Origin: Eledone cirrhosa
Lineage: Eukaryota
Length of the DNA stretch: 64,000 nt
Assembly (NCBI GenBank): GCA_964016885.1
Contig: OZ024741.1
Location: 308,016,001-308,080,000, forward strand
Direction of reading: 5' to 3'
The translations under genes were made by a program, and so were the position numbers. The notes under the pieces are model-generated. The model was not told where the DNA came from. It searched no databases and worked only from the letters and a program-made list of their open reading frames with translations. Of the stretch, positions 10,896-62,739 are shown in pieces. Every line of letters begins with the position of its first letter. Position 1 is the first letter of the stretch.

Positions 10896-10909
10896 ATTAT
10901 ATATACAGA

Positions 10910-18884: not shown

Positions 18885-21800
18885 TGTAGTGTGGTATGTT
18901 GTGATGTAGTGTGGTATTGTGTGGTATGGTGTGGTGTGATGTAGTGTGGTATGGCGTGATGTAGTGTGGTATGGTGTGATGTAGTGTGGTATGGTGTGAT
19001 GTAGTGTGGTATGGTGTGGTGTAGTGTGGTATGGTGTGATGTAGTGTGGTATGGTGTGGTGTAGTGTGGTATGGTGTGATGTAGTGTGGTATGGTGTGAT
19101 GTAGTGTGGGATGGTATGGTGTAGTGTGGTATGGTGTGATGTAGTGTGGTATGGTGTGATGTAGTGTGGTATGGTGTGGTATGGTGTGGTGTGATGTAGT
19201 GTTGTATGATGTGATGTAGTGTGGTATGGTGTGGTGTAGTGTGGTGTGATGTAGTGTGGTATGGTGTGATGTAGTGTGGTATGGTGTGATGTAGTGTGGT
19301 ATGGTGTGATGTAGTGTGGTATGGTGTGATGTAGTGTGGTATGGTGTGATGTAGTGTGGTATGGTGTGATGTAGTGTGGTATGGTGTGATGTAGTGTGGT
19401 ATGGTGTGATGTAGTGTGGTATGGTGTGGTGTAGTGTGGTATGGTGTGGTGTAGTGTGGTATGGTGTGATGTAGTGTGGTATGGTGTGATGTAGTGTGGT
19501 ATGGTGTGATGTAGTGTGGTATGGTGTGATGTAGTGTGGTATGGTGTGATGTAGTGTGGTATGGTGTGGTGTGGAATGGTGTGGTGTGATGTAGTGTGGT
19601 ATGGTGTGATGTAGTGTGGTATGGTGTGATGTAGTATGGTATGGTGTGATGTAGTGTGGTATGGTGTGATGTAGTGTGGTATGGTGTGGTGTAGTGTGGT
19701 ATGGTGTGATGTAGTGTGGTATGGTGTGGTGTAGTGTGGTATGGTGTGATATAGTGTGGTATGGTGTGGTGTAGTGTGGTATGGTGTGGTGTAGTGTGGT
19801 ATGGTGTGATGTAGTGTGGGATAGTGTGGTGTGGAATGGTGTGGTGTGATGTAGTGTGGTTTGCTGTGATGTAGCGTGGTATGGTGTGGTGTAGTGTGGT
19901 ATGGTGTGGTGTAGTGTGGTATGGTGTGATGTAGTGTGGTATGGTGTGATGTAGTGTGGTATGGTGTGATGTAGTGTGGTATGGTGTGATGTAGTGTGGT
20001 ATGGTGTGATGTAGTGTGGTATGGTGTGATGTAGTGTGGTATGGTGTGATGTAGTGTGGTATGGTGTGGTGTAGTGTGGTATGGTGTGATGTAGTGTGGC
20101 AGTGGTGTGGTGTAGTGTGGTATGGTGTGATGTAGTGTGGCAGTGGTGTGGTGTAGTATGGTATGGTGTGGTGTAGTGTGGTATGATGTGATGTAGTGTG
20201 GTATGGTGTGATGTAGTGTGGTATGGTGTGATGTAGTGTGGTATGGTGTGGTGTAGTGTGGTATGATGTGATGTAGTGTGGCAGTGGTGTGGTGTAGTGT
20301 GGTATGGTGTGATGTAGTGTGGCAGTGGTGTGGTGTAGTGTGGTATGGTGTGATGTAGTGTGGTATGGTGTGATATCGTGTGGTATGGTGTGATGTAGTG
20401 TGGTATGGTGTGATGTAGTGTGGTATGGTGAGGTGTAGCGTGGTATGGTGTGATATAGTGTGGTATGGTGTGATGTAATGTGGTATGGTGTGATGTAGTG
20501 TGGTATGGTGTGATGTAGTGTGGTATGGTGTGATGTAGTGTGGTATGGTGTGATGTAGTGTGGTAGGGTGTGATGTAGTGTGGTATGGTGTGATGTAGTG
20601 TGGTATGGTGTGGTGTAGTGTGGTATGGTGTGATGTAGTGTGGGATGGTGTGGTGTGGAATGGTGTGGTGTGATGTAGTGTGGTTTGCTGTGTTGTAGTG
20701 TGGTATGGTGTGGTATGGTGTGGTGTGATGTAGTGTGGTATGGTGTGATGTAGTGTGGTATGATGTGGTGTAGTGTGGTGTAGTGTGGTATGGTGTGTTG
20801 TAGTGTGGTTTGCTGTGGTGTAGTGCGGTATGGTGTGATGTAGTGTGGTATGGTGTGGTATGATGTGGTGTGATGTAGTGTGGTATGGTGTGATGTAGTG
20901 TGGTATCGTGTGGTATGTTGTGGTGTGATATAGTGTGGTATGGTGTGGTATGGTGTGGTGTGATGTAGTGTGGTATGGTGTGATGTAGTGTGGTATGGTG
21001 TGGTATGGTGTGGTGTGATGTAGTGTGGTATGTTGCGATGTAGTGTGGTATGGTGTGGTATGGTGTGGTGTGATGTAGTGTGGTATGGTGTGGTATGGTG
21101 TGGTGTGTTGTAGTGTGGTATGGTGTGATGTAGTGTGGTATGGTGTGGTATGGTGTGGTGTGATGTAGTGTGGTATGGTGTGATGTAGTGTGGTATGGTG
21201 TGATGTAGTGTGGTATGGTGTGGTGTGGAGTGGTGTGATGTAGTGTGGTATGGTGTGATGTAGTGTGGTATGGTGTGATGTAGTGTGGTATGGTGTGATG
21301 TAGTGTGGCATGATGTGATGTAGTATGGTATGCTGTGATGTAGTGTGGTATGGTGTGGTGGAGTGTGGTATGATGTGATGTAGTATGGTATGGTGTGATG
21401 TAGTGTGGTATGGTGTGATGTAGTGTGGTATGGTGTGGTGTAGTGTGGTATGGTGTGATGTAGTGTGGTATGGTGTGATGTAGTGTGGTATGGTGTGATG
21501 TAGTGTGGTATGGTGTGATGTAGTGTGGTATGGTGTGATGTAGTGTGGTATGGTGTGATGTAGTGTGGTATAGTGTGATATAGTGTGCTATGGTGTGATG
21601 TAGTGTGGTATGGTGTGATATAGTGTGGTATGGTGTGATGTAGTGTGGTATGATGTGATGTAGTATGGTATGGTGTGATGTAGTGTGGTATGCTGTGATG
21701 TAGTGTGGTATGGTGTGATGTAGTGTGGTATGGTGTGATGTAGTGTTGTATGGTGTGATGTAGTGTGGTATGGTGTGGTGAAGTGTGGTATGGCGTGATG

Positions 21801-24800: not shown

Positions 24801-27800
24801 TATGGTGTGATGTAGTGTGGTAAAGTGTGGTGTAGTGTGGTATGGTGTGGTGTAGTGTGGTATGGTGTGATGTAGTGTGGTATGGTGTGGTGTAGTGTGG
24901 TATGGTGTGGTGTAGTGTGGTATGGTGTGATGTAGTGTGGTATGGTGTGGTGTAGTGTGGTATGGTGTGGTGTAGTGTGGTATGGTGTGATGTAGTGTGG
25001 TATGGTGTGATGTAGTGTGGTATGGTGTGGTGTAGTGTGGTATGGTGTGATGTAGTGTGGTATGATGTGATGTAGTGTGGTATGGTGTGATGTAGTGTGG
25101 TATGGTGTGGTGTAGTGTGGTATGGTGTGGTGTAGTGTGGTATGATGTGATGTAGTGTGGTATGGTGTGATGTAGTGTGGTATGGTGTGGTGTAGTGTGT
25201 TATGGTGTGGTGTAGTGTGGTATGGTGTGATGTAGTGTGGTATGGTGTGATGTAGTGTGGTATGGTGTGGTGTAGTGTGGTATGTTGTGGTGTAGTGTGG
25301 TATGATGTGATGTAGTGTGGTATGGTGTGATGTAGTGTGGTATGGTGTGGTGTAGTGTGGTATGGTGTGGTGTAGTGTGGTATGGTGTGATGTAGTGTGG
25401 TATGGTGTGATGTAGTGTGGTATGGTGTGGTGTAGTGTGGTATGGTGTGATGTAGTGTGGTATGGTGTGATGTAGTGTGGTATGGTGTGATGTAGTGTGG
25501 TATGGTGTGATGTAGTGTGGTATGGTGTGATGTAGTGTGGTATGGTGTGATGTAGTGTGGTATAGTGTGATGTAGTGTGGTATTGTGTGATGTAGTGTGG
25601 TATGGTGTGATATAGTGTGGTATGGTGTGATGTAGTGTAGTATGATGTGATGTAGTATGGTATGGTGTGATGTAGTGTGGTATGGTGTGGTGTAGTGTGG
25701 CATGGTGTGATGTAGTGTGGTATGGTGTATGTAGTGTGGTAGTGGTGTGATGTAGTGTGGTATGGTGTGATGTAGTGTGGTATGGTGTGATGTAGTGTGG
25801 TATGGTGTGGTGTAGTGTGGCATGGTGTGATGTAGTGTGGTATGGTGTATGTAGTGTGGTAGTGGTGTGATGTAGTGTGGTATGGTGTGATGTAGTGTGG
25901 TATGGTGTGATGTAGTGTGGTATGGTGTGGTGTAGTGTGGTATGGTGTGGTGTAGTGTGGTATGGTGTGGTGTAGTGTGGTATGGTGTGATGTAGTGTGG
26001 TATGGTGTGATGTAGTGTGGTATGGTGTGGTATGGTGTGGTGTGTTGTAGTGTGGTATGGTGTGATGTAGTGTGGTATGGTGTGGTATGGTGTGGTGTGG
26101 TGTAGTGTGGTATGGTGTGGTGTAGTGTGGTATGGTGTGATGTATTGTGGTATGGTGTGGTGTAGTGTGGTATGGTGTGATGTAGTGTGGTATGGTGTGG
26201 TGTAGTGTGGTATGGTGTGATGTAGTGTGGTATGGTGTGGTGTAGTGTGGTATGGTGTGATGTAGTGTGGTATGGTGTGGTGTAGTGTGGTATGGTGTGA
26301 TGTAGTGTGGTATGGTGTGATGTAGTGTGGTATGGTGTGATGTAGTGTGGTATGGTGTGGTATGGTGTGGTATGGTGTGGTGTGTTGTAGTGTGGTATGG
26401 TGTGATGTAGTGTGGTATGGTGTGGTATGGTGTGGTGTGATGTAGTGTGGTGTGGTGTGATGTAGTGTGGTGTGGTGTGATGTAGTGTGGTATGGTGTGG
26501 TATGGTGTGCTGTGATGTAGTGTGGTATGGTGTGATGTAGTGTGGTGTGGTGTGATGTAGTGTGGTATGGTGTGATGTAGTGTGGTATGATGTGATGTAG
26601 TATGGTATGCTGTGATGTAGTGTGGTATGGTGTGGTGTAGTGTGGTATGGTGTGATGTAGTGTGGTATGGTGTGATATAGTGTGGTATGGTGTGTTGTAG
26701 TGTGGCAGTGGTGTGATGTAGTGTGGTATGGTGTGATGTAGTGTGGTATGATGTGATGTAGTATGGCATGTTGTGATGTAGTATGGTATGGTGTGATGTA
26801 GTATGTTATGGTGTGGTGTAGTGTGGTATGGTGTGAAGTAGTATGGTATGGTGTGATGTAGTGTGGTATGCTGTGATGTAGTGTGGTATGGTGTGATGTA
26901 GTGTGGTATGGTGTGATGTAGTGTGGTATGGTGTGATGTAGTGTGGTATGGTGTGATGTAGTGTGGTATGGTGTGATGTAGTGTGGTATGGTGTGATGTA
27001 GTGTGGTATGGTGTGATGTAGTGTGGTATGGTGTGGTGTAGTGTGGTATGGTGTGATGTAGTGTGGTATGGTGTGGTGTAGTGTGGTATGGTGTGGCGCA
27101 GTGTGGTATGATGTGGTGTAGTGTGGTATGGTGTGGTGTAGTGTGGTATGGTGTGATGTAGTGTGGTATGATGTGATGTAGTATCGTATGGTGTGATGTA
27201 GTGTGGTATGGTATGATGTAGTGTGGTATGGTGTGATGTAGTGTGGTATGGTGTGATGTAGTGTGGTATGGTGTGGTGTAGTGTGGTATGATGTGGTGTA
27301 GTGTGGTATGGTGTGGTGTAGTGTGGTATGGTGTGATGTAGTGTGGTATGGTGTGGTATGGTGTGGTGTGATGTAGTGTGGTATGGTGTGGTGTAGTGTG
27401 GTATGGTGTGATGTAGTGTGGTATGATGTGATGTAGTATGGTATGGTGTGATGTAGTGTGGTATGGTATGATGTAGTGTGGTATGGTGTGATGTAGTTTG
27501 GTATGGTGTGATGTAGTGTGGTATGATGTGGTGCAGTGTGGTATGGTGTGGTGTAGTGTGGTATGGTGTGATGTAGTGTGGTATGGTGTGATGTAGTGTG
27601 GTATGATGTGGTGTAGTGCGGTATGGTGTGATGTAGTGTGGCAGTGGTGTGATGTAGTGTGGTATGGTGTGGTGTAGTGTGGTATGGTGTGATGTAGTGT
27701 GGTATGGTGTGGTGTAGTGTGGTATGGTGTGGTGTAGTGTGGTATGGTGTGATGTAGTGTGGTATGGTGTGGTGTAGTGTGGTATGGTCTGATGTAGTGT

Positions 27801-30800
27801 GGTATGGTGTGGTGTAGTGTGGTATGGTGTGATGTAGTGTGGTATGGTGTGATGTAGTGTGGTATGATGTGGTGTAGTGCGGTATGGTGTGATGTAGTGT
27901 GGCAGTGGTGTGATGTAGTGTGGTATGGTGCGATGTAGTGTGGGATGGTGTGATGTAGTGTGGTATGGTGTGATGTAGTGTGGTATGGTGTGATATAGTG
28001 TGGTATGGTGTGATGTAGTGTGGTATGGTGTGATGTACTGTGGTATGGTGTGGCGTACTGTGGTATGGTGTGGTGTAGTGTGGTATGGTGTGGTGTAGTG
28101 TGGTATGGTGTGATGTAGTGTGGTATGGTGTGATGTAATGTGGTATGGTGTGATATAGTGTGGTATGATGTGATGTAGTGCGCTATGGTGTGGTGTAGTG
28201 TGGTATGGTGTGGTGTAGTGTGGTATGGTGTGATGTAGTGTGGTATGGTGTGATGTAATGTGGTATGGTGTGATGTAGTGTGGTATGGTGTGATGTAGTG
28301 TGGTATGGTGTGGTGTAGTGTGGTATGGTGTGGTGTAGTGTGGTATGGTGTGGTGTACTGTGGTATGGTGTGGCGTACTGTGGTATGGTGTGGTGTAGTG
28401 TGGTATGGTGTGGTGTAGTGTGGTATGGTGTGATGTAGTGTGGCAGTGGTGTGATGTAGTGTGGTATGGTGTGGTGTAGTGTGGTATGGTGTGATGTAGT
28501 GTGGTATGGTGTGATGTAGTGTGGTATGGTGTGGTGTAGTGTGGTATGGTGTGGTGTAGTGTGGTATGGTGTGATGTAGTGTGGCAGTGGTTAGATGTAG
28601 TGTGGTATGGTGTGGTGTAGTGTGGTATGGTGTGATGTAGTGTGGTATGGTGTGATGTAGTGTGGTATGGTGTGATGTAGTGTGGTATGGTGTGATGTAC
28701 TGTGGTATGGTGTGGCGTACTGTGGTATGGTGTGGTGTAGTGTGGTATGGTGTGGTGTAGTGTGGTATGGTGTGATGTAGTGTGGCAGTGGTGTGATGTA
28801 GTGTGGTATGGTGTGGTGTAGTGTGGTATGGTGTGGTGTAGTGTGGAATGATGTGGTGTAGTGCGGTATGGTGTGATGTAGTGTGGCAGTGGTGTGATGT
28901 AGTGTGGTATGGTGTGGTGTAGTGTGGTATGGTGTGATGTAGTGTGGTATGGTGTGGTGTAGTGTGGTATGGTGTGGTGTAGTGTGGTATGGTGTGATGT
29001 AGTGTGGTATGGTGTGGTGTAGTGTGGTATGGTGTGATATAGTGTGGTATGGTGTGGTGTAGTGTGGTATGGTGTGATGTAGTGTGGCAGTGGTGTGATG
29101 TAGTGTGGCAGTGGTGTGATGTAGTGTGGTATGGTGTGGTGTAGTGTGGTATGGTGTGATGTAGTGTGGTATCGTGTGATGTAGTGTGGTATGGTGTGGT
29201 GTAGTGTGGTATGGTGTGGTGTAGTGTGGTATGGTGTGATGTCGTGTGGTATGGTGTGGTGTAGTGTGGTATGGTGTGATGTAGTGTGGTATGGTGTGGT
29301 GTAGTGTGGTATGGTGTGATGTAGTGTGGTATGGTGTGGTGTAGTGTGGTATGGTGTGACGTAGTGTGGTATGGTGTGGTGTAGTGTGGTATGGTGTGAT
29401 GTAGTGTGGTATGGTGTGGTTTATGTGTGGTATGGTGTGGTGTAGGGTGGTATGGTGTGATGTAGTGTGGTATGGTGTGATGTAGTGTGGTATGGTGTGG
29501 TGTAGTGTAGTATGGTGTGGTGTAGTGTGGTATGGTGTGATGTATTGTGGTATGGTGTGGTGTAGTGTGGTATGGTGTGATGTAGTGTGGTATGGTGTGG
29601 TGTAGTGTGGTATGGTGTGATGTAGTGTGGTATGGTGTGGTGTAGTGTGGTATGGTGTGATGTAGTGTGGTATGGTGTGGTGTAGTGTGGTATGATGTGA
29701 TGTAGTGTGGTATGGTGTGGTGTAGTGTGGTATGGTGTGATGTAGTGTGGTATGGTGTGGTGTAGTGTGGTATGGTGTGGTGTAGGGTGGTATGGTGTGA
29801 TGTATTGTGGTATGGTGTGGTGTAGTGTGGTATGGTGTGATGTAGTGTGGTATGGTGTGGTGTAGTGTGGTATGGTGTGATGTAGTGTGGTATGGTGTGG
29901 TGTAGTGTGGTATGGTGTGGTGTAGTGTGGTATGGTGTGATGTATTGTGGTATGGTGTGGTGTAGTGTGGTATGGTGTGATGTAGTGTGGTATGGTGTGG
30001 TGTAGTGTGGTATGGTGTGATGTAGTGTGGTATGGTGTGGTGTAGTGTGGTATGGTGTGGTGTAGTGTGGTATGGTGTGATGTAGTGTGGTATGGTGTGG
30101 TGTAGTGTGGTATGGTGTGATGTAGTGTGGTATGGTGTGGTGTAGTGTGGTATGGTGTGGTGTAGTGTGGTATGGTGTGATGTATTGTGGTATGGTGTGG
30201 TGTAGTGTGGTATGGTGTGATGTAGTGTGGTATGGTGTGGTGTAGTGTGGTATGGTGTGATGTAGTGTGGTATGGTGTGGTGTAGTGTGGTATGGTGTGA
30301 TGTAGTGTGGTATGGTGTGGTGTAGTGTGGTATGGTGTGATGTAGTGTGGTATGGTGTGGTGTAGTGTGGTATGGTGTGATGTAGTGTGGTATGGTGTGG
30401 TGTAGGGTGGTATGGTGTGATGTAGTGTGGTATGGTGTGATGTAGTGTGGTATGGTGTGGTGTAGTGTGGTATGGTGTGGTGTAGTGTGGTATGGTGTGA
30501 TGTATTGTGGTATGGTGTGGTGTAGTGTGGTATGGTGTGATGTAGTGTGGTATGGTGTGGTGTAGTGTGGTATGGTGTGGTGTAGTGTGGTATGGTGTGA
30601 TGTAGTGTGGTATGGTGTGGTGTAGTGTGGTATGGTGTGATGTAGTGTGGTATGGTGTGGTGTAGTGTGGTATGGTGTGATGTAGTGTGGTAAGGTGTGA
30701 TGTAGTGTGGTATGATGTGGTGTAGTGTGGTATGGTGTGATGTAGTGTGGTATGGTGTGGTGTAGTGTGGTATGGTGTGGTGTAGTGCGGTATGGTGTGA

Positions 30801-31085
30801 TGTAGTGTTGCAGTGGTGTGATGTAGTGTGGTATGGTGTGGTGTAGTGTGGTATGGTGTGGTGTAGTGTGGTATGGTGTGGTGTAGTGTGGTATGGTGTG
30901 GTGTAGTGTGGTATGGTGTGGTGTAGTGTGGTATGGTGTGGTGTAGTTTAGTATGGTGTGATTTTGTGTGGTATGGTGTGGTGTAGTGCGGTATGGTGTG
31001 ATGTAGTGTGGTATGGTGTGGTGTAGTGTGGTATGGTGTGGTGTAGTGTGGTATGGTGTGATGTAGTGTGGTATGGTGTGGTGTA
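18885..31085. repeat. Satellite array, 20-bp unit GTAGT-GTGGT-ATGGT-GTG(A/G)T built from pentamers
   Basis: ~12.2 kb continuous and nearly C-free on the + strand; variant units recur at kb scale. Confidence 0.98.
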
Positions 31086-32025
31086 GTGGGGCAGTGGTGG
31101 CGGTTGTAGCGGTGGCGGTGGTGACCTTCGTGGTGATTGTGGTTGTAGTAGCGGTGGGAGTAAGGGTGAGGATGAGGGGGATTAAGGTGGGGGTAGTTGA
31201 TGTGGTGGTGGTGTTGTTGTTACTGGTGGTGTGGGCAACATTCATAATAATATTCATGATAGTGAATAAGGCGTTCGGGATGGGGGTAATGGTTGTGGTG
31301 TGTTGTGATGGAGGCGATGGTGCAGGTTGTGGTGGTGGTGTGGTTTGTGGTGATGTTGATGGTGATGGATATGACGTTCGTGGTGGTAATGGTGGTGGTT
31401 GTGGTGGTGGTGTGTTGTGATGGTGGTGGTTGCGGTGGTGGTGTGTTGTGATGGTGGTGGTTGCGGTGGTGGTGTGTTGTGATGGTGGTGGTTGCGGTGG
31501 TGGTGTGTTGTGATGGTGGTGTTTGCGGTGGTGGTGTGTTGTGATGGTGGTGGTTGCGGTGGTGGTGTGTTGTGTTGGTGGCAATTGTGGTGGTGGTGGC
31601 AATTGTGGTCATGGAGATGTTGATGGTGATGTATATGACGTTCGTGGTGGTTGTGTTGTGATGGTGGTAATGGTGGTTGCGGTCGTGGTGTGTTGTGATG
31701 GTAATGGTGGTGGTTGTGTTGGTGGTGTCGTTCGTGGTGATGTTGATGATGATGATGATGGATATGACGTTCGTGATGGTAGTGTTGGTGGTGGTGTGTT
31801 GTGATGGTGGTAATGGTGGTGGTTGCGGTGGTGGTGTGTTGTGATGGTAATGGTAGTGGTGGTGGTGTCGTTCGTGGTGATGTTGATGATGATGATGGAT
31901 ATGACGTTCGTGATGGTAGTGTTGGTGGTGGTTAGTTGTGATGGTGGTAATGGTGGTGGTTGCGGTGGTGGTGTGTTGTGATGGTAATGGTGGTGGTTGT
32001 GATGGATATGACGTTCGTGATGGCA
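31086..32025. repeat. GGT-rich complex minisatellite
   Basis: Recurring blocks ggtggtgtgttgtgatggtggtggttgc and gatggatatgacgttcgtg. Confidence 0.85.
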
Positions 32026-35439: not shown

Positions 35440-35805
35440 CCCTCGATCTCACACAATGTCACTTCTAGTCCCCAACCTTACCACCTATACTTTCTTTAAC
35501 ACTCTCTTCATTCCCAATGGAGGTGGGTGTTAGTGTAGCAAAGTAAGTGAGTATTGCGTGTGTGTTAGTGTAACAGTTGTTTACGAGATCGGTTGGTCCT
35601 TGCGGAGAGTGAGGTGGTGATACTAAACGAGTAGCTTGCTGGTATAATGTAGATTCACTCAGAGAGATGTATCTGTGGGTAAATCTGTAGTGAACATTGA
35701 ATAAGTAGTTGAAATAATAACTGGACTGGTTATTTAGTGGTTTCATAGAAAATTGGTGAAAAGTGACAGCTTGGGCAAATGGTTGTATATTTTAGATAAA
35801 TATAT

Positions 35806-35989
35806 TTGTTTCTACTTTTGGCACAAGGCCAGCAATTATCACAGTGCATTACTGGTACTATATTTTATCGACCGCGTAAGGATGAAAGGCAAAGTTAACC
35901 TCGGTGGGATTTGAACCCAGATCGTAAAGGGCCGTAACTCTATGCTGCAAAGCATGGCGTCCGACTCTGTACCGATACTGCCAATCCAC
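35806..35989 (-). mobile_element. SINE family A
   Basis: Full family A sequence; imperfect TSD tgtata.tttagata.atata at 35784-35804 and 35990-36010. Confidence 0.9.
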
Positions 35990-40249: not shown

Positions 40250-40462
40250 ATGTGTGTAGGGGGGGGGGGGGCGAATATATTATGTAAAAGAGAATGAAGT
40301 TTCAATTTAGAATATTTTTTTTATTCACCATGAAACGTGACACGTATTTCGTAGATGATCAGCTTGAGGTCGTAATCGATCAGGTTTTGGTATTATCTGC
40401 TCACCAGACACGTAGATTACAATCAAAACATTTTCCTATTCTCTCTCTATCTTTCTTTTCCT

Positions 40463-40816
<354 letters not shown>

Positions 40817-41400: not shown

Positions 41401-42929
41401 ATTTAAATATTTGTAGCACAGTTATTTGCTAGTTTAAATGTTGTGCGTCTGATTTAAACCCTTGTTCTTGTCAAGTGTATATATTTCAAAAATGGGCAAA
41501 AACTCCTCATATTCTGACGTCCAAAGACGCTAAATAGCATCTTTGTAAGACACAAGTTACTCAGAGCGTAAGATATCTATCAAAATGGAGTGTAGCATGT
41601 ATGTATACAGTCTAGTAACGTTCTGCTTTTAAATCCTGCCGAGGTCATCTTGGCTTTTCCTCCTTCGGAAAGCAATAAAATAAAGCACTGGTCAAGTACT
41701 GGAGTCGATATCAACACCCCCACTCACCGTGAAAAGCATTGATGGCTTTGTGCCTAAATTAGAAATAATTATTAGTCCAGTGAATTCATATATTTAGATT
41801 GACTACGGTCAATTATTTCCAATCCTCATTTGCTAAAAACCAAAATACCAATAAATAAATAAGTGTATGTATCATTTTCTTATGTATAAATAAATAAATA
41901 AATAAATAATTTAATATGGTTGTCTACTGTTACTGCCTCTCATCTATCTGTTTAAGTATGATGATATTCCCTCCTCCACAAGAAGCTGCCTAGATTGGTA
42001 AAAGCGTAGTCCCTTAACTCCGCGTCTTAGAAATGTATCTATAGTTAATGTTTCCAGATACTGCAATCAACGTAATATTATACGTCATGTTTCTCCACGA
42101 GGACAAATTAGCTGGACAGAAACAAGAGAGAAAGTATAATATGAATAAATAGATATCGTCGTTGTATGGATTTCATTCTGCCCGCCATATTAAAAAATCA
42201 TTGAATGCAGACGACAGCTTCGTTGAAAATAAGATGTATTATAGATTAACATATATATAGAAAATTTTTCGTTTCGTTTTCTGCAAGAGATTAACGTTCC
42301 TAATAGAATTTTGTTATTTGTTACAAGAACCGATATCTGATCATCTGCTATCCTTTACTTGACCGCAGCGGTCAATAGCAATGCCGAACCTGAAACTCAG
42401 CCAATTGCTTGCCGGCTTTAATCTTTCTAAATGGTTGTGTGTGTGTGTGTCTGTGTATATGCGTGTGCGATGTGTAATATATGTGTGCGGTGTATATGTG
42501 TGTGCGGTGTGTAATATATATATATGTGGTAGTGTGTTTATGTGCATGATATTACACATGCGAATGTATGTGAGTGTGTTGCAGGGTTTCAAGTGATTCT
42601 GTATCTCATTGTGTACCCGTGCGTACTATCATATGCAACTGTTTGTAAGGGTGTAATATAAACACATGATCGCAAGTAGGCACGCACTCACACATATATG
42701 TATGTTCGTCTAGCTTTATAATTTCACAAAGTTTTACCAATAGAGAGAGAGAGACGGTTTCTAACATAGTTACAAGACTCTCTCATTGGAATTTACACAA
42801 CATCAACTAGGTAGATATGTATGTATGCATGCATGTGTAAATATGGATGTTATTGTATGTGTGGATGTGGATGTTTTGAGTTGTATGTGTGCATGTGTAT
42901 ATGTTTTGTATCTGTACATGTGTATATGC

Positions 42930-44810
42930 AGTTATTAGATGCAACATTTTTGGAATGTTTTACATATTTTTACTGTTCCATTAATGGATTGTACTTTTAA
43001 TTTCCTAACTAGTTGTGTTCTTTCTGTTCCTGTGAAGCCTAGCTTCTCAAGATTTGTATTGAGGCAGTTACTAACATATCCCAGTGCCCCAATAATAACA
43101 GGCATAAATCTGAAGGTATAGTCAGGGTGGAGTATCTGCAGATTTCTCATCAGTTCTGCATAAATGTTCTCCTTTTCACTAATCTTTGATATTATACTGG
43201 CATCTGTTGTGCATGCTTTCTTCTCCCTGTCCCATATCATAATATCTGGTCTGCTATGCCTGCATTTTATTGGGGTTTTTACTGGAACATTCCACCAGTA
43301 CTCTATGTACATGGATGTCTTCGACATTGCTGTAGCTTTTAATGTGTTTATTATCGGGGCTATCTTTTTTACGAACTGCATTGTACAGAGTTTTGGCCAC
43401 TGCATCATGCCTCATAGGTAGATAGTATCGCGATGACATCTTTGGACAGCTGCTGATGACATGGGTGATATCCTCGATGTTAGTTCTGCAGAGTCTGCAC
43501 TTGTTATCACATCTAGGTGTTTTGCCTGCATCCCTATCTCTTTTGTGAATCAGGTATTTCGTGCTAATCTCCTGTTCCTGGATTGCAAAAGCGTATCCTT
43601 CAAAGTGGGAGCCAATATAGCGGTTGTTGGTCCAAGATAGACTACTTTCCTTATCTATATTACTCTCACTCTGGAGCTTCCTGGCAACATATCCATGCAT
43701 GATTTTTTGCTGATAGGCATGCACTTTTTCATCCATGGATTCACTGCGATACTGCTGAGCGACATACCTGAGTGTGAGTTTTAGATTATCACACAGGGAA
43801 TATGTCTCGAGGAGTTCCTTCCCAACTCTCATGATCTTATCTGTTTCATTCAGATAGACTTGCTCGAGAAACGGGCTCCTACGCTTCGAGGTTCTTAGAT
43901 GTTGTCCAAGAGAGATGATGCGACATTCAAATGTTGTCTGGACTGATGTTAGGCATCTGCCTCTCTGCTTACGTTTCAAGTAAAGGCGGTCTATGTCACT
44001 GTTGATGTGGAAGTTTCCGGTGTTGTTCAGTATTTTTCGAGTTCCAACATCAACTGCTCGGATTTCGTCTATCGTCCAATTGAGTATTCCAAACCTTGGT
44101 GTTAGGACAGGCACAGCAAACACATTGTGAGCCATTGTTTTGTTCTACACAGAGAGTTCCGATGACCAGATCTTTCTTAATCGGGTGTAGTATTCCTGGT
44201 TACGCGTTCTTTATTACAGATACCATTATAGGATATGTTCTTATCTATCCCCAGGTATCTGTAGCAGTCCTCATCAGATATCGGTGAAACAGTTAGGCCA
44301 TTAATGACAATGTTGCTAGATTGGGTTGTTGTTTTTCCCCGCTTTACAGTCATGTATGAGCATTTATCTTGGCCAAACTCCATTCCTATATCCTTTGAGA
44401 ACGTTGTAACCAGGTCAATATTTTTCTTCATCCCATCCATGTTCTTGGCATAGAGTTTCAGATTGTCCACAAAGAAATTATGGGTTAGTTTCGTATTTCT
44501 GTCCTCCTGTGAGCCAATGATGTATCCCTCACATTTCTTGAACAGAAAGGACAAGGGGTTTAATGACAAGATGAATAATATCACAGAGAGACTGTCCCCC
44601 TGAAATATACCCATGCAATATTTTATTTTATCAGTGAAAGTAGAGTCCTCCCTCTCTGTCTTTAACCTTAGGATAGTAGCCCAAGAAGAAGACAGCCTCT
44701 CTATGTCTCTGACAATAATGTCTGGGACTTTAGCAAGTTGGAGGGCCTCTATCATCCAAGAGTGGGGAACAGAATCGAAAGCTTTCTTGTAGTCCAGCCA
44801 GACTGTAGTC

Positions 44811-44811
<1 letters not shown>
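42930..44811 (-). mobile_element. R4/Dong-type RLE non-LTR retrotransposon, 5'-truncated pseudogene (RT + CCHC + restriction-like endonuclease)
   Basis: WLDYKKAFDSVPHSW, GIFQGDSLS, FFVDNLKLY (catalytic DD mutated), YRYLG, DRLYLKR..GR, CRLC..HVISSC, RHD, RPDIMIWD; frameshifts; 5' junction abuts (TATG)n at 44812. Confidence 0.92.
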
Positions 44812-44841
<30 letters not shown>

Positions 44842-45119
44842 TGTATGTATGTATGTATGTATGTATGTATGTATGTATGTATGTATGTATGTGCGTACGT
44901 ATATATGTATGTATGAATGTATGTGCGTACGTATGTATATATGTGCGCATCTAAGTATGTATGTGCGTACGTATGTATGTATGTATGTATGAATGTATGT
45001 GCGTACGTATGTACGTGTGTATGTAGGATGAGTGTGTATAATTGTATATCTGCATATATAACTATCTGTAGTTGTGAAATATAGATATAGTGAATGTAAA
45101 TACGGACTGAATATATTTA

Positions 45120-46655: not shown

Positions 46656-47358
46656 CTTTGATAACTTTGATAGGTTTCGGCTAGTATTGGTCCAGGCCAT
46701 GTCTAACTTAATAGCACCACCTGGCGAAGTCTTACAAATCAGTGTTTGGGCACCATGGCCCATTCGAGCAGAGAGTTATTGTTTACGGAGGCATATCCGG
46801 GTGTAGGAGGCTTATCCGGGATTTCTTGAAGGAATTTATCAAAAGACTTCTTGAACTTGATGGGGTCTGTCTCTGCTTTGATGTGTTTTGGTGTAATGTT
46901 AAAGAGTGCAGGGCCAATTGGGGTGAAATAATTGTGCCGTATTGTTGTTATGTGATGCGAGTGTGATTTTTGTCGTGGGCGGATAGCACGGGGCCCAAGC
47001 CTTGAGTGTACACTAAAGGTGATGCCAACATCATTTGGGCTAAGCTGATGGAATATTTTCCACATCATGCAGATAATGTAGCGCTCACGGCGACGTTGAC
47101 GAGAATAAAGTTTGAGCTTTTCTAATCGACCCCAATAGTCAAGGCCTGTCATGCCAACTATCTTTTTTGTAATTGACTTTCGGGGTGCTTCAACTTTCAT
47201 GATACTTTGTTTCGTGTGGGGTGACCACAGTGGACAACAGTATTCAAGGTGGGGTCGGGCGAAAGTGGAGAAGAGAAGGACAACAGTGTGGATATCTCTC
47301 GACGGGAAAGTTCTGAGAATCCAGCAACAATTCTGCGGGCCATATCAACTTTGCTGTT
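46653..47358 (-). mobile_element. CR1/L2-group LINE 3' fragment
   Basis: [47 protein letters not shown]; short tandem tail (caaagttat); (TA)n on both sides. Confidence 0.88.
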
Positions 47359-47467
<109 letters not shown>

Positions 47468-47501
47468 GGATTTAAATGGATACAGTTTAGTTAAAAGGAA
47501 T

Positions 47502-47622
47502 TTATTGACACGTGTTTCAATAACAGTTACATAACCTGAAAACAGCTGCTATCTACAAAGTATTAGTTATGCAGACATTCAATATTTCAATGTTATTATC
47601 AACTGTCATTTCATCAGAATAA
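47502..47622 (-). ncRNA. Type I hammerhead ribozyme with 72-nt stem II loop, intact
   Basis: ttatt-CTGATGA-aatgacagtt...aactgttatt-GAAAC acgt GTC-aataa: 5-bp stem I, 10-bp stem II, palindromic stem III. Confidence 0.82.
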
Positions 47623-48096
47623 TTTTACTGAGGACCTGTTTGGTTTTTATAGATAATATTAGGAGGGAGGGGTGAAGTTGTTAGAAGAATAGTTGAGGGA
47701 GTGGTTTTTTGATAGCAGTGAGAATTTTTGGTGGCAGTGAGTAATTAGATTCCCATCTGTTGTTTTGACATTTTTATAGAATATATTATTGGTTATTTTT
47801 CTAAATCTATAGAAGGATTAGAGATAGTATAGATATGCATGGTTGGTTTTGTGTTTGCACTTAATTAACATTCAGACTTAAATTTTTCTTTCAAGTGTAC
47901 GTATCCTTTCGCCCACGCATTCACACACAAACATATATGCACACCTATACAAAATACATATACTCACATACACATACTTACATGCTCATACTTACATACA
48001 TATACACATGCACATATATATATATACATATATATACATATATACACCCCTCCCTCCTAATATTCTCTATAAAAACCAAACAGGTCCTCAGTAAAA

Positions 48097-48217
48097 TTAT
48101 TCTGATGAAATGACAATTGATAATAACATTGAAATATTAAATGTCTGCATAACTAATACTTTGTAGATAGCAGCTGTTTTCAGGTTATGTAACTATTATT
48201 GAAACACGTATCAATAA
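48097..48217 (+). ncRNA. Degenerate copy of the same hammerhead
   Basis: CTGATGA at 48102, GAAAC acgt ATC at 48201-48212; two stem II mismatches. Confidence 0.6.
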
Positions 48218-48364
48218 ATTCCTTTTAACTAAACTGTATCCATTTAAATCCTTCTATTTTTCTCCGGATTACTTTTGGAACTACAACTGGAACCGTCGAG
48301 CAAACTCTACGTGAGCTGTCCATCTACTGTGTGTAATATTTATATTACAACACTACGGAAAATA

Positions 48365-48429
<65 letters not shown>

Positions 48430-49136
48430 ATACAATAACAGAGAAAGCTTTAAGCTAAACTCTGACTGGCTACCATCTCACTCAACAAACATTAGGATAT
48501 ACGTTAGTATAATCCCAATTTTGTGTTTGGGGTGCTAACTATATGTATTTTGTTGAAAGCCAGTTGTATTATTTTATATGAGATATAATTAAAATTAAAA
48601 TATATCTCTCTTTCCAAACAATTGTTTCATTATAAGTTTTCTACAAGTTGGGAGAATGTTTCCGGTTTATGTAGAAGCCTACATATTTTTTTGTAAGAAC
48701 ACATGCAGGTGGGCACTTATAAATCATCATTGGAAGGCCATCAAACTTTGATATAAGAAAAAATTTCTTACCGCAGTTATTTTTCGTGTCAGCTAAGTTG
48801 ACCCTTCACGCATCATAATGACCGCCAAATTTGAAATTCCAGCACTCTTTAGAGTGAGGAATTTCACAGCGTCACGAAATATATATATATATATATATAT
48901 ATATAACTGTTTTGCAAGGTGTTTGATATTAAATCGTCTGTCGAAACAAATATTGTTATACTTGGGGAGGGACATATTGTTGTAATAATATTGCCAGAAA
49001 TAATAACAGAACACACTCACTGTTTGGTTGGTTTTCTCTTCTGTATCTTTTATATCTCCATAGTTAATTTATTTGGCAATCAACGTTTATCATTGACTGA
49101 CCAACGGTTAAAAATACAGATATAAATATATATATA

Positions 49137-49276
49137 TAGTCTATCAAAGTTCTTTCGTTGGTACTATTATGTTTCTCCTGTTGTATTGTAGACATGGCGT
49201 AGACATACAATACACAGGAGGAAACATAATAGTACCACTAATGATGTTGCAGATGTGCAACGAAAGGACATTGATA

Positions 49277-49281
<5 letters not shown>
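49137..49281. mobile_element. Palindromic MITE-like element in (TA)n
   Basis: Outer TIR tagtctatcaaagttctttcgttg / caacgaaaggacattgatagaata; inner arms tggtactattatgtttc / gaaacataatagtacca. Confidence 0.75.
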
Positions 49282-49331
<50 letters not shown>

Positions 49332-49479
49332 ACTATATTTTTACCGTTGGTCGATCAATGATAAACATTGATTGCCAAATAAATTAACTATGGAGATATA
49401 TAAAAGATACAGAAGTGAAAACCAACCAAACAGTGAGTGTGTTCTGTTATTATTTCTGGCAATATTATTACAACAATAT

Positions 49480-49670
49480 AGCGGTGGATTGGCAGTATCA
49501 GTAGAGAGTCGGACGCCATGCTTTGCACCAAAGAGTTACGGCCCTTTATGGTCTGAGTTCAAATCCCGCCAAGGTTAACTTTGCCTTTCATCCTTACGGG
49601 GACGATAAAATGAAGTACCGGTAATGTACTGGGTAATTGCTGGCCTTGTGCCAAAAGTAGAAACAATTAT
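49480..49670 (+). mobile_element. SINE family A with TSD
   Basis: Full family A; attattacaacaatat at 49464-49479 and 49666-49681. Confidence 0.92.
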
Positions 49671-49747
49671 TACAACAATATGACCCTCCCCAAGTATATA
49701 TATATATATACACATACATAAATATACACATATATATATGTATATAT

Positions 49748-50187
49748 GTATGATGGACTCTCCCGCCGATATCCGACGTATGAGTGTCCAACAACAAAAG
49801 TTAGAAATGTGAGAAAGCGAACTGAAGTTGAACTACCCACACAAAGTTTTGTTTTAAGTAGTGAAGGGTGGTGTAGGACCAACCACACTTTTGGAACTGA
49901 CGACACATTTCTTCGGTGCAAATGTTTGCCACAGAAAATACAACGACAGTCCTCAGCTTTTTACGCCTCCGAGTTTAACCTTTTCGTAAAAAAATAAAAA
50001 AAATAAAACTATTTGGATGGCCGTTGACTCGCCCTTTGCCGGGCCTTATATTTCACCCGCGGGGTATCCAAATATCTCCCTCCTCACCAAGCAAGCTTGG
50101 TGGGGTTGCCGGTTTAGTCGCCGACGACCCGACCATCAGAAAGGTTGTACTGGGTTACATGTTACCAGTAGCACTCGAGAGCAACCT

Positions 50188-50190
<3 letters not shown>
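49748..50190 (-). mobile_element. Bipartite RTE-derived element with the same head and a different 3' part
   Basis: Minus-strand head gtcaggttg..tactggtaacatgtaacccagtacaacc..gagtcaacggccatccaaa; 5' end abuts (TG)n. Confidence 0.7.
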
Positions 50191-50250
<60 letters not shown>

Positions 50251-50311
50251 GTACATATGTGTGTGTGTGTGTATATGTATATATGTATATATATATATGT
50301 ATATAGATATA

Positions 50312-53810: not shown

Positions 53811-54004
53811 ACACTACCAGAGCATACGTTACTACCATCGTCACTTCCGTTAGCGCCAATGCTGACATCTGTGATAATAAAAGTACATTTTTTTTTCAGT
53901 TGTTATCTTGTCCATTTGCCTAGGTAGCTCTATATCACAATCTTCCTCTGTATATAGAAGTATATCCACGCATGTGTATGTATGTATATATGTATGTATG
54001 TATG

Positions 54005-55321
54005 TTTTCTCTTTCTCTTAATTTCGAGTATATTTTTTTGACCGGCCACCTTCCTGGTGGCAAGGTTGTAAAAGAAAAGAAATTGTCATCCCTTGAATCG
54101 GAAGAATGTTTTGCATATTTTGAAGGTGCCAGCTATCGCAGCCATTTGTAGACTATGAATTAGGGAGCTGCGCTTTTTGTCCGCAAATCCAAGTTCGGTC
54201 ATACTTTGGTCCAAGCGGGTTGGTATATAACCCGTAGCACCAATAATGATGGGTATGAAGCTAAAGGTGTATCTTGGATACTGGATTTGTAAGCTCCTCA
54301 TCAATGGTCCGTAGATGTCCTCCTTCTCCTGTATTTTTCTGACAACGTTTACATCAAGTGGGCAGCTGATCTCCACAACAGAACACGTTTTCAATGTGTG
54401 GTCCCAAACTACAATATCAGGCCGGTTGTGCTTTAATTTGGTGGCAGTTTTTATTTTCACGTTCCACCAGTATTCCTTAGTGCCATCTGTCTCAATATAT
54501 TCTTCCTCGTTTGTTGTTAATTTTGTTTTCCGAAGTGCGTTCCAGATAGTTCTAGCTATCCCATCGTGTCTCATGGGGAGGTAGTAGCGAGATGACATTC
54601 TTTCGCAGCTGGCAACAATGTGGCTTACATCCTCGATCTTTGTTTTACATAGCCTACATTTATTGTCAGCTGCTGGCCCTCCTCTTTTGTGCAGCAGATA
54701 TTTGGTAGGGAGTTCTTGTTCCTGTATTGCATAGAGATATCCCTCAAGGTGTGATGTCATAAACTTGTCGGAACTCCATGCCAGGCTTTTTGAGTGGTTT
54801 ATCCCCTCTATGGTCTGTGTTTTACGCCTCAAGTATCCATGCACAACTTTCTCTGTAAATTGGTCAATTTTTTTTTCTTGTTTGAACATTGAATAGGATC
54901 TTCCGATTTCTCTGGGTGAGAGATTTATATCAGGCTTTATTCCATATCTCTCCTCCAGATCAGTCACTATTCTAATGATATTTCTTTTTTCATGCTCATA
55001 AACCTGAGCAAGATGGTCGCCAACCTTTTTCCTCTGTTGAAGGTGTTGCTTCAGTGTTACTATCCGGGTCTCATATGTTGTTAATATTGATTTTAGACCC
55101 CGGCCACCTTCCTTGCGTGAGAAGTATAGCCTATCCACATCACCATTGATGTTAAAGTTCCCAGTAACACTGAGAAGTTTACGAGTTCTAACATCCATCT
55201 CACTTAGTTCTTGCAATGACCAGTTCAGTAGGCCAAATGTTGGCGTTATAATTGGCACAGCATAGGTATTGTGGGCAATGTATTTGTTGTATGCTGACAG
55301 TTCTGATCACCATATTTTTTT
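54005..55321 (-). mobile_element. R4/Dong-type RLE retrotransposon, 5'-truncated, open C-terminal ORF 54086-55258
   Basis: DVDRLYFSRKEGGRGL, IQEQELPT, CRLCKTKIEDVSHIVASC, RHD, HNRPDIVVWD..VVEISCPLD; 3'UTR hairpin gccacc-ttcct-ggtggc; (TATG)n on both sides. Confidence 0.93.
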
Positions 55322-55386
55322 GTATGTATGTATGTATGTATGTATGTATGTATGTATGTATGTATGTATGTATGTATGTATGTATG

Positions 55387-56361
55387 TTTTCCCTTTCTCT
55401 TAATTACGAGTATATTTTTTTTGACCGGCCACCTTCCTGGTGGCAAGGTTGTAAAAGAAAAGAAATTGTCATGCCTTGAATCGCAAGAATGTTTTGCAAA
55501 TTTTGAAGGTGCCAGCTATCGCAGCCATCTGCAGACTATGAATTAGGGAGCTGCGCTTTTTGTCCGCAAATCCAAGTTCAGTCATACTTTGGTCCAAGCG
55601 GGTTGGTATATAACCCGTAGCACCAATAATGATGGGTATGAAGCTAAAGGTGTATCTTGGATAATGGATTTGTAAACTCCTCATCAATGGTCCGTAGATG
55701 TCCTCCTTCTCCTGTATTTTTCTGACAACGTTTACATCAAGTGGGCAGCTGATCTCCACAACAGAACACGTTTTCAATGTGTGGTCCCAAACTACAATAT
55801 CAGGCCGGTTGTGCTTTAATTTGGTGGCAGTTATTATTTTCTGGTTCCACCAGTATTCCTTAGTGCCATCTGTCTCAATATATTCTTCCTCGTTTGTTGT
55901 TAATTTTGTTTTCCGAAGTGCGTTCCAGATGGTTCTAGCTATCCCATCGTGTCTCATGGGGAGGTAGTAGCGAGATGACATTCTTTCGCAGCTGGCAACA
56001 ATGTAGCTTACATCCTCGATCTTTGTTTTACATAGCCTACATTTATTGTCAGCTACTGGCCCTCCTCTTTTGTGCAGCAGATATTTGGTAGGGAGTTCTT
56101 GTTCCTGTATTGCATAGAGATATCCCTCAAGGTGTGATGTCATAAACTTGTCGGAACTCCATGCCAGGCTTTTTGAGTGGTTTATCCCCTCTGTGGTCTG
56201 TGTTTTACGCTTTAAGTATCCATGCACAACTTTTTCTGTAAATTGGTCAATTTTCTTATCTTGTTTGAACATTGAATAGGATCTTCCGATTTCTCTGGGT
56301 GAGAGATTTATATCAGGCTTTATTCCATATCTCTCCTGCAGATCAGTCGCTATTCTAATGA
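55387..56361 (-). mobile_element. Second, shorter near-identical R4/Dong copy (ORF 55469-56272)
   Basis: Same CCHC/RLE and 3'UTR, different 5' truncation; (TATG)n on both sides. Confidence 0.93.
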
Positions 56362-56449
56362 TGTATGTATGTATGTATGTATGTATGTATGTATGTATGT
56401 ATGTATGTATGTATGTATGTATGTATGTATGTATTATGTATGTATGTAT

Positions 56450-57037
56450 GTCAGGTCACCAGTTGGTGCTACTGGTAACATGTATCCCAGTACAACCTGT
56501 CTCATGGTCGGGTCGTTGGCGACTAAACTGGCAACCCCACCAAGGTTTCTTGGTGAGGAGTGTGACTTTGGACATCCTGCAGGACTAAAAACAAAACCTG
56601 TCAAAGGAGCTCTTAAGAGTCAATGGCCATCCAAAATCACCGGGAGAGATGACCCCTTAGCCTTTGTCAAGGCAGAATTCTAGGAGAAGGAAAACTCTGA
56701 TATAACACCTGCAACTCTGATGGTATCTTGTTCTTCTTTTTGGTAAATATCATCTTGGTTAAGAGAGTGGGACTGGCTTTGTGCAGTGCTTTTGCTCACT
56801 ATAAAAGCTTCACGGCACAGGCATTGCTTTATATCTGGAGATCTCTCTGCACTTGTCGTCACATGGTACCATGGGCTCAGCACTATGTGTCAATAATTGT
56901 CACAAGTGTAGTGTTTGTACCAGAGTTTTCAAGTCGCTGGCTGGACTAAAAAGTCACACTCGTTCAGCGCATCGGTAGGAGTTCTCCTACATGGATATAA
57001 AGTAGTGGCCGTACTCGAAAACGAGTTGGCAGCCACC
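56450..57037 (+). mobile_element. Bipartite RTE-derived element, apparently full length (~590 bp)
   Basis: Structured head, ctaggagaaggaaaactctgat motif, C2H2-like remnant CSVCTRVFKSLAGLKSHTRSAH, 3' stem-loop and (ATGT)n. Confidence 0.85.
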
Positions 57038-57083
57038 ATGTATGTATGTATGTATGTATGTATGTATGTATGTATGTATGTAT

Positions 57084-57482
57084 GTCATCTCTCCCATTTG
57101 TCAAGGCAGAATTCTAGGAGAAGGAAAACTCTGATATAACACCTGCAACCCTGATGGTATCCAATGATGTTGACTTGTTCTTCTTTTTGGTAAATATCAT
57201 CTTGGTTAAGAGAGTGGGACTGGCTTTGTGCAGTGCCTTTGATCACTATAAAAGCTTCACGGCACAGGCATTGCTTTATATCTGGAGATCTCTGCACTTG
57301 TCGTCACATGGTACCATGGGTCCAGCACTATGTGTCAATAATTGTCACAAGTGTAGTGTTTGTACCAGAGTTTTCAAGTCGCTGGCTGGACTAAAAAGTC
57401 ACACTCGTTCAGAGCATCGGTAGGGGTTCTCCTACATGGATATAAAGTAGTGGCCGTACTCGAAAACGAGTTGGCAGCCACC
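57084..57482 (+). mobile_element. Bipartite RTE-derived element, 5'-truncated with a short 5' inversion
   Basis: Near-identical to 56663-57037; starts with gtcatctctccc, the reverse complement of gggagagatgac. Confidence 0.85.
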
Positions 57483-57499
57483 ATGTATGTATATATGTA

Positions 57500-57875
57500 T
57501 AAGGGGCGGAAGAACTCATAAGAGTCAACGGCCATCCAAAAGTGTGTAAATATGTATATACACATGTACCGCGCGGTTAAACCACTGGGAGTGAAGGACC
57601 CCTAGCCTTTGTCAGGGCATTCTTCTAGGAGAAGGCAACTCAGGAAACTGGGATAACTCCGATATAAAACTTGCGGTTCAGTACTTACCGATGATGTTGT
57701 TCTTTTCTTCTTTTCGGGTTATAGCTACTGTCGCTCAGAGAGTGGGATTGGCTCAGTGCACAGTCTTTCCTCACTTTAAAAAATATCTTCACTCACAGGC
57801 ACTGCACGATAGAATTAGTTAATAATGGTATATCGTGCAATGGCCATACTCGATAACGAGGGGGCAGCCATCACG
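57500..57875 (+). mobile_element. Older diverged subfamily of the bipartite RTE-derived element
   Basis: gagtcaacggccatccaaa, tagcctttgtcagggca..ctaggagaagg, 3' ggccatactcgataacgagggggcagcc. Confidence 0.7.
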
Positions 57876-61410: not shown

Positions 61411-61939
61411 ATATTTACTACTTTATATTATGTTAATATATGAAATCATGATACTTAAAAGAAAAGGTACTTCGAGAGGAAAGCAAGCGTGCAGTTAATC
61501 AGCCACTTTGGAAGTTTGCCACACACACATACATGTGAGTGTGTGTATGTATGTGTGTGTGAGCGTGCGTATGTCGATTTGTGTGGATGTCTATGTATGT
61601 GTGTGTGTGATGTTATGCTACATTATGTTGCATTTCTTTTATTGTTTTGTAAATCCTGAGGGAATCGCAGGGGCACCGTATTAACATACGACGTTACTAA
61701 GGGATTTGATTAAAACCTGATGAAGCCCAATCTTCTTCAAGTCTGATTACAGCAGTTTTCTTCCTGAAAAGGATAGAGAGGGGGTAAATGAGTGAATGGA
61801 AGTGAGAAAGAGATATAGAGGAAGAGCAGGCCCTAGTACTTTACTGGTACTTTTTGTATCGACATCGAATGGACGAAAGACAAAGTTGATCTCGGCGGAT
61901 TTTGAACTCAATTGAGAGCATTATATTATACTATATATA

Positions 61940-62128
61940 CGATGAATTGGCAGTATCGGTAGAGGGTCGGACGCCATGCTTTGGCGCATAGAGTTACGGC
62001 CCTTGCCGTTCTGAGTTCAAATCCCGCCGAGGTTAACTTTGTCTTTCATCCTTACGGGGTCGATAAAATAAAGTACCAGTAATGTACTGGGTATTTGCTG
62101 GCCTTGTGCCAAATGTAGAAACAATTAT
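61940..62128 (+). mobile_element. SINE family A with TSD
   Basis: Full family A; attatattatactat at 61920-61934 and 62124-62138. Older diverged relatives at ~2545, 16290, 32725, 36255, 41620, 52400, 59850, 61835. Confidence 0.9.
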
Positions 62129-62739
62129 ATTATACTATTCTTTACCATTTCAGATTTGCCAACCTCTAAAAACACATATGGGAAGTGCCATGAAAATAAA
62201 GTGCCCCAAAATGGAGAGAAATGAGACAAAATGTGGAGATTTTATATAATGAAAGCTATACCCATTTCCACAAGAGCAGATATCTCTCACGCACCCCAAA
62301 GGCTATTGCAAATCTCCCCGTTGGGCGGAGGAGTTGACAGGTCTACCATTTCATAATATATTTCATAATGTATTAAGATATGTGTCCTTGAAAGTCTGAC
62401 CGAATAGGCTCGAGCCACAACACGCTCCTCGTTTGCTTTTTACTCATATTGTATCTAGGACTGTGATATCCATTTTGATCTTTTCTTTATGGTTTGTTTT
62501 GAGCGGGATTTAGCGATTATTTCTAACAGATTGAGCGACTGCATAGAGGCACCCTCGTTAGCTCGATTAAGATATATTATAATATCAGGTGTACAGCATG
62601 CATCGCCGGAAGTGAAAGATATCATCCATCTTAATGACATTTCCCACTTGCAGGATTGTGTTTCAAGCGGGGGTTTGTGGTGGTGAAGTATCGAGTTGAT
62701 AACTGAAACACAAAGAACATAAATATTAAATATTATACC

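Follow-up and report, generated by a model that had tools for sequence, protein, structure and literature searches.

In a 64,000-nucleotide stretch of the Eledone cirrhosa genome (hereafter the window), we found copies of two families, A and B, of R4/Dong-type non-LTR retrotransposons that very probably insert by sequence-specific target-primed reverse transcription (TPRT) into pre-existing (CATA)n microsatellites. Judged from its sequence, family A is best called an element that has the R4/Dong architecture and works like Dong but differs in its target, which is (CATA)n and not (TAA)n. Throughout, the sense strand of the elements is the CATA strand. Arrays are given without strand.

Two 5′-truncated family A copies were located head-to-tail on the minus strand. 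Copy 1 (54005–55321, −) corresponded to positions 2908–4224 of the full element and was 99.7% identical to the full-length copy L043. It contained the thumb region of the reverse transcriptase (RT), the CCHC knuckle and the restriction-like endonuclease (RLE), followed by an 81-nt 3′ UTR. Copy 2 (55387–56362, −) corresponded to positions 3250–4224 and its identity to L043 was 97.7%, so that it is likely the older of the two. The copies were 97.4% identical over 976 alignment columns, with unlike 5′ truncations and (TATG)n at each junction. This agrees with the sequence-only reading, which had described two near-identical copies of the same orientation with (TATG)n on both sides. The same reading treated each copy as separately bounded. 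The repeat was indeed present at all junctions, but the (TATG)16 array at 55323–55386 is both the 5′ flank of copy 1 and the 3′ flank of copy 2. Together with the imperfect (TATG)n array at 53975–54004 (3′ flank of copy 1) and the (TATG)17 + (TATG)4 array at 56364–56450 (5′ flank of copy 2), the pair thus has three arrays in all, and these are not independent evidence. A tandem duplication of a single insertion was ruled out by the 2.6% difference and the different 5′ ends.

A divergent third copy had been placed at 42930–44811. Its 5′ junction was confirmed to lie in a (TATG)20 array (44812–44891, with a degenerate continuation to ~44991) and in the same orientation as the A copies, but its 3′ end is in fact at 42705, ~230 nt beyond the stop codon. 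This 5′-truncated family B copy (42705–44811, −) was 94.5% identical to the full-length B copy L126 and gave an RVT_1 match. Its ~230-nt 3′ UTR is followed by CATAC at 42704–42700, meaning that the target is present at both ends, the 3′ one being short. The open reading frames noted by the sequence-only reading were found only in the A copies (stop-free over 406 and 298 aa, the stop in copy 1 lying six codons from the 5′ junction), whereas that of the B copy was split across three frames with stops. The 3′ UTR of the B copy (42705–42934) also carried fixed CA/CATA-rich tracts, suggesting that the element may have taken up an old downstream flank.

The complete family A element was 4,224 bp long, with a 633-nt 5′ UTR, one 1,169-aa ORF starting from Met, and an 81-nt 3′ UTR. 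An ORF of 1,160 aa or longer was kept in 26 of the 40 full-length copies; the intact copies had a mean pairwise divergence of 0.27% and included four identical pairs. Family A is therefore very young, in line with the recent activity proposed from the open frames. The protein had the features expected of the R4/Dong type, also as proposed: a single ORF with an RT (FVDD motif, the DD invariant across 86 aligned proteins), a C-terminal knuckle of the form C-x2-C-x8-H-x4-C and, beyond it, the RHD / RPD / E / K motifs of the RLE. The predicted catalytic and zinc residues (C980, C983, H992, C997, R1009, H1010, D1060, E1075 and K1091) were conserved over the 86 aligned relatives. The sole CxxC was at residue 980, and N-terminal zinc fingers were absent. 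Nor did the full-length ORF contain an N-terminal APE endonuclease, as the RT is preceded by a three-helix domain and a disordered linker, and the RLE motifs are C-terminal. The seven best PDB matches of the predicted structure (pLDDT 87) were R2 proteins (E from 2e-35 to 6e-29), followed by LINE-1 ORF2p. The three-helix domain was predicted for residues 11–82 with pLDDT 88. Its top matches were mostly Myb/SANT DNA-binding domains, e.g., TRF1 (Z 6.0, rmsd 3.5, 64 aligned residues) and Zeste (Z 5.9, rmsd 2.5, 64 aligned), although these matches were weak, with Z of 5–6 in the range that the tool calls common. The Rfam search of the 5′ UTR returned sub-threshold matches only, nearly all to simple repeats, and no ribozyme or RNA head.

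We searched the genome with the last 300 bases of the family A element; the best 40 of 954 candidates were scored and 30 loci were examined. At all 30, one of which was the window copy, CATA directly followed the identical last base. The corresponding search with the first 200 bases (best 40 of 624 candidates scored, 30 loci examined) gave the pentamer YATAC before the first base in 30 of 30 loci (CATAC in 28 and TATAC in two). Families A and B both terminate in AA ahead of CATAC.

The flank analysis covered 90 copies of family A (40 full-length, 50 truncated) in which both ends were present, with flanks of 80 nt or more. These were the best-scoring matches together with bystander copies. The queries were free of flanking sequence, so the flanks were unselected; the sample is biased to young copies, and the 3′-end search also to one contig. 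The 3′ flank was CATA-rich in 88 of the 90 copies, and the 5′ flank in 39 of the 40 full-length and 45 of the 50 truncated ones, compared with a background of 0.9% of 24-nt windows per strand in the 64-kb window. TATG-rich 5′ flanks, i.e., the opposite strand, were seen in no full-length copy and one truncated copy. The truncated copies are the telling class, since a truncated 5′ end cannot carry an RNA leader. With one copy counted per array, 32 of 34 truncated copies still had CATA at the 5′ junction. Among the five that failed the 5′ test, one was a short perfect array. A repeat at the 3′ end only, with random 5′ flanks, had been named in advance as the observation that would speak against target specificity; the truncated copies contradict such a tail-only reading.

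The 3′ junctions were also in register. Among 80 copies with ≥97% identity to the reference (the other 10 were left out), positions +1 to +4 beyond the 3′ end were C in 79, A in 80, T in 78 and A in 78, with a decay from +5. In 38 young full-length copies, positions −1 to −4 of the 5′ junction were invariant. Truncated 5′ junctions, on the other hand, occurred in all four phases, with a mean overlap between repeat and element of 2.0 nt vs. 0.83 nt expected (32 copies). Mixed CATA/TATA arrays were accepted.

Non-canonical 8-mers were common to the two flanks of the same copy (Jaccard 0.222 vs. 0.080 ± 0.017 after shuffling, maximum 0.157 in 10,000; 50 of 90 copies informative). The signal persisted when one copy was taken per array and the 40 nt closest to the 5′ junction were left out (0.243 vs. 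0.084 shuffled; 33 of 72 informative). Imperfections shared by both sides of a copy mean that the arrays most likely pre-existed the insertion, as neither a templated tail nor a short duplication would produce them. We also looked for empty sites by joining the sequence beyond both arrays (65 of 90 copies testable); the matches listed contained no unique empty locus, only arrays between other repeats. R4 of Ascaris makes a 13 bp target-site duplication. In family A such duplications are only hinted at: duplication-like matches between the flanks were found in 10 of 80 copies vs. 2.55 ± 1.5 after shuffling, with lengths of 8–14 nt in four full-length and 14–40 nt in six truncated copies, and the periodicity of the arrays is a confounder.

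A different origin of the arrays would be that the element makes the repeat itself as a 3′ tail, and that the 5′ arrays arise only when new copies land in the tails of earlier ones through RNA–DNA pairing, with little protein specificity. Such crowding is real: 68 of the 90 copies had an A, B or S-type neighbor within 300 nt (S is a short non-coding repeat sharing the arrays, see below), and all 93 such neighbors kept a fixed orientation relative to the CATA strand. The 3′ repeat of a further family, C, moreover starts with a shared variant unit, as a partly encoded tail would. Nevertheless, 44 of the 90 copies had no A, B or S-type element within 300 nt upstream, and most of these still had a 5′ array. 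The 3′ flank of family A leaves the perfect repeat from +3 to +5 in a locus-specific manner, so at most about one unit can be encoded by the element. In R2, it is the protein rather than RNA pairing that selects the insertion site. We therefore regard the self-made tail as improbable.

Family B extends the specificity to a second, older family. In the genome search, the best 40 of 2,004 candidates were scored. The full length was ~4.1 kb, the copies were 86–97% identical to the reference copy L126, and the protein shared 46–53% identity with that of family A in the RT and the C-terminal part. None of the 16 long B stretches contained a whole ORF. CATA-rich sequence was found at 39 of 45 3′ ends and 33 of 51 5′ ends, and no 5′ end was TATG-rich; several of the 18 5′ ends that failed the CATA test look like internal breaks of old copies. 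Family B is older than A and uses the same repeat, strand and phase, which upholds the earlier proposal of a tetranucleotide specificity conserved across two families.

Relatives on metagenome contigs were distant (24–46% identity). Of 80 such relatives, many of them close kin, 25 reached the C-terminus; by eye, (TAA)n was near one of the ends in 16 of the 25 and (CATA)n in none. Single copies of five other metagenome relatives (L197, L198, L228, L236 and L243) ended in (AT)n, poly(A), (ACA)n, (GAT)n and (TCT)n. A genome search with one metagenome relative yielded family C (loci L274–L315), which is young and has a long 5′ UTR; its 1,141-aa ORF was present in 12 of 12 copies chosen for an intact ORF. 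In family C, TAA-rich sequence was seen at 49 of 53 3′ ends and, among the truncated 5′ ends, at 16 of 21, with CATA-rich sequence at none, while TAA-rich flanks were absent from either side of all 90 family A copies. We thus saw no cross-over between the targets.

The phylogenetic trees (77 and 38 rows) were quick and unrooted, and had no named R4, Dong or Rex6 among their rows; searches via protein relatives, a lepidopteran relative and cluster names gave no named Dong, R4 or Rex6 reference. We tried the OTU-bearing protein P0070 as a NeSL-like outgroup, but it fell inside the ingroup, which leaves the trees without a valid root. In these unrooted trees, A and B belonged to one long-branch group of otherwise unnamed proteins (SH-aLRT 100 with 77 rows and 94 with 38 rows), in which A was sister to an Argonauta protein and A and B were not sisters; C was placed amid TAA-flanked elements. 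The nearest named protein to A was from Argonauta hians, with 65% identity across 60% of the query length. It is likely that the lineage changed its target from the (TAA)n of classical Dong, still used by family C. Because A and B do not form a sister pair, there was either one old switch or two separate ones.

The least probable explanation, which we consider practically negligible, is that insertion is unspecific and the copies were merely retained in neutral, repeat-rich DNA. The genome (3.0 Gb) is extremely rich in simple repeats, as this explanation needs. Passive accumulation is contradicted by the fixed strand and phase. The commoner repeats were also avoided: the window had 176 (TA)n and 109 (CA)n arrays vs. 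11 of (ACAT)n, i.e., they are 16 and 10 times commoner, and yet (TA)n and (CA)n dominated one 5′ flank each among the 90 copies, and not a single 3′ flank. Neither the low divergence of the intact copies nor the clean partition from family C fits passive retention.

By analogy with R2 and R4, the insertion into a pre-existing array may proceed as follows. The C-terminal RLE would nick the TATG strand at TATG^TATG, with an uncertainty of one base because the last base of the element is A. The 3′ end exposed by the nick would then prime cDNA synthesis on the 3′ end of the RNA, and the 5′ end would be joined by pairing of a few bases with the upstream array. The predicted N-terminal Myb-like domain likely binds the repeat upstream of the cut. 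The target would remain on both sides of each insertion, letting later A, B and S copies pile up head-to-tail, the arrangement seen in the window.

It is also conceivable, if rather unlikely, that the element targets short CATA seeds and itself adds repeat units at the 5′ junction, through a template jump, slippage or an RNA leader that bears repeats, so that insertion would create much of the upstream array. The median (YA)n run was indeed longer upstream (66.5 nt) than downstream (28 nt) of the 80 copies (Wilcoxon p = 1.4e-4). The upstream runs were about twice as long both in full-length (70 vs. 32 nt) and in truncated copies (54 vs. 27 nt), and the 11 nt preceding full-length copies were nearly invariant. 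At one locus (L137/L193, G000:C7 near 24081400), a 77-bp stretch of the element's own 5′ UTR lay ahead of a full-length copy and was linked to it via an internal ATACATAC; this suggests a template jump, and such a join is expected of a jump by repeat-bearing cDNA. Against repeat addition, locus-specific imperfections upstream matched the downstream array of the same copy even at distances beyond 40 nt from the junction, and a need for upstream binding by the Myb-like domain would explain the asymmetry without any synthesis. Repeat addition at insertion and the targeting of pre-existing arrays are partly compatible.

Among known elements, Dong is the closest in kind. The accessible parts of PMC3812793 give TAA as the target of Dong of silkworm, mosquito and snail, and those of PMC7998251 give (TAA)n in most insects, molluscs and cnidarians. 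Like Bombyx mori Dong, DongAg, the snail DongBg and the ostracod Dong, as far as their accessible descriptions go, family A has a single ORF, an RT with a C-terminal RLE, and a microsatellite on both sides. The diverged SANT/Myb N-terminus without zinc fingers reported for R4/Dong (PMC7998251, accessible text) may have its counterpart in the weakly matched predicted three-helix domain of A. Unlike Dong, A is flanked by (CATA)n, with none of 90 copies TAA-rich, and falls outside a strict (TAA)n definition of Dong; it is only 30% identical to the TAA-type family C and sits on a separate long branch. R4-clade elements are mostly target-specific, according to the portion of PMC4640811 at hand. The R2 proteins (R2Bm, R2Tg) provide the best sequence and fold matches to A among solved structures, and the TPRT model. 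In contrast to A, whose single CxxC belongs to the C-terminal knuckle, R2 carries zinc fingers at its N-terminus and has 28S rDNA as its target, and the structural-alignment identity is 15–19%. Waldo of the R1 clade (WaldoAg1, WaldoAg2, WaldoFs1) uses ACAY microsatellites, including the repeat of A (PMC3812793, in the part accessible), but it is an insect element with an APE-type endonuclease, and the shared target would be convergence. Hero and Togen are RLE families specific for microsatellites, such as (TG)n in the case of Togen, but they belong to other clades and use other repeats (PMC4640811, accessible text).

Dong-R4 elements are expanded in cephalopods (PMC8967140 and PMC10294476, accessible parts). 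For O. vulgaris, the accessible text of PMC13282606 reports 51 Dong-R4 consensus sequences (92.7 Mb) and five families that were active recently, with 1,129 insertions and an average length of ~4.2 kb that matches A and B. Orthologs of A are probably among those families. The accessible portions of PMC13282606, PMC8967140 and PMC9115989 do not name the target site of octopus Dong-R4, and those of PMC7650587 and PMC13580325 add nothing further on a (CATA)n target. In the searchable literature we found no (CATA)n-specific R4/Dong element; Repbase, Dfam and most subscription papers lie outside it and could record the target. Family A would be the first tetranucleotide-specific R4/Dong in that literature, converging on the repeat of the APE-type Waldo.

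What families A and C offer is not a new mechanism, but a clean natural target switch with an in-genome control. Young elements that share an architecture and are still intact occur in one genome on two cleanly separated targets, (CATA)n for A and (TAA)n for C, so that domain swaps can test retargeting. What retargets a site-specific RLE retrotransposon, be it the N-terminal DNA-binding module, the endonuclease or RNA–DNA pairing, bears directly on R2-based gene insertion tools. Insertions inside microsatellites are likely missed by short-read callers. In the part of PMC9115989 accessible to us, MELT gave few non-reference insertions for the O. bimaculoides Dong consensus; if that element is of A's kind, the negative result for its activity may be a false negative. 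In octopods, (CATA)n markers often adjoin multicopy elements. A broader scenario, which we offer only tentatively, is that an undescribed R4/Dong branch moved from (TAA)n to (CATA)n in the distant past, survives in octopods in the form of several families, lengthens the upstream array with each insertion and so builds its own targets; together with a short retroposon of opposite polarity in the shared arrays, it would be a main engine of (CATA)n microsatellites in octopod genomes.

Element S, which shares the arrays with A and B, is a ~590-bp non-coding repeat at 56452–57040 (+), with a constant end at 57040 and a variable end at 56452. A second, truncated copy (57097–57485, +) is separated from the first by a (TATG)11 array (57041–57084). 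Further S or related families sharing (CATA)n arrays were observed at 14977–15405, with related pieces at 15499–15869, 50012–50257 and 57579–57875. The genome search gave 909 candidates; of 56 bystander copies, 47 kept the constant end and 24 reached the other one. One constant and one often truncated end make S likely to be a retroposon of opposite polarity. S also occurred in (TA)n. ARAGORN predicted no tRNA in S, Rfam returned sub-threshold matches only (nearly all to simple repeats) and no RNA head, and sequence comparison showed no end shared with A or B.

DNA near-identical to family A was also present in sequencing runs labelled as 17 organisms, 11 of them with at least a fifth of the words. 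RNA runs were absent from the matches listed, which has no bearing on expression. Among the matches listed, at least 45 contigs in the organism D run and at least two in the organism F run continued past the 3′ end of A with CATACATAC. CATA thus followed the 3′ end in two of four runs, and was not seen among the ends listed in the other two.

We must also note several other repeats in the window. An open frame of 201 aa (46742–47344, −) had no Pfam match and presumably resembles the C-terminal portion of a reverse transcriptase from another LINE. Inverted repeats of MITE-like or DNA-transposon-like appearance were located at 47462–48257 (213-bp arms, 97.7% alike), 48974–49479 and 40440–40782, two of them beside or around (TA)n. 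A dispersed repeat of ~200 bp, 88–95% alike and SINE-like in size, was found at 10693–11014, 35802–35989, 49476–49671, 61918–62131 and 2553–2626. Finally, a 12.2-kb satellite occupied 18885–31088, with a period of 20, ~619 copies and 89% matches.
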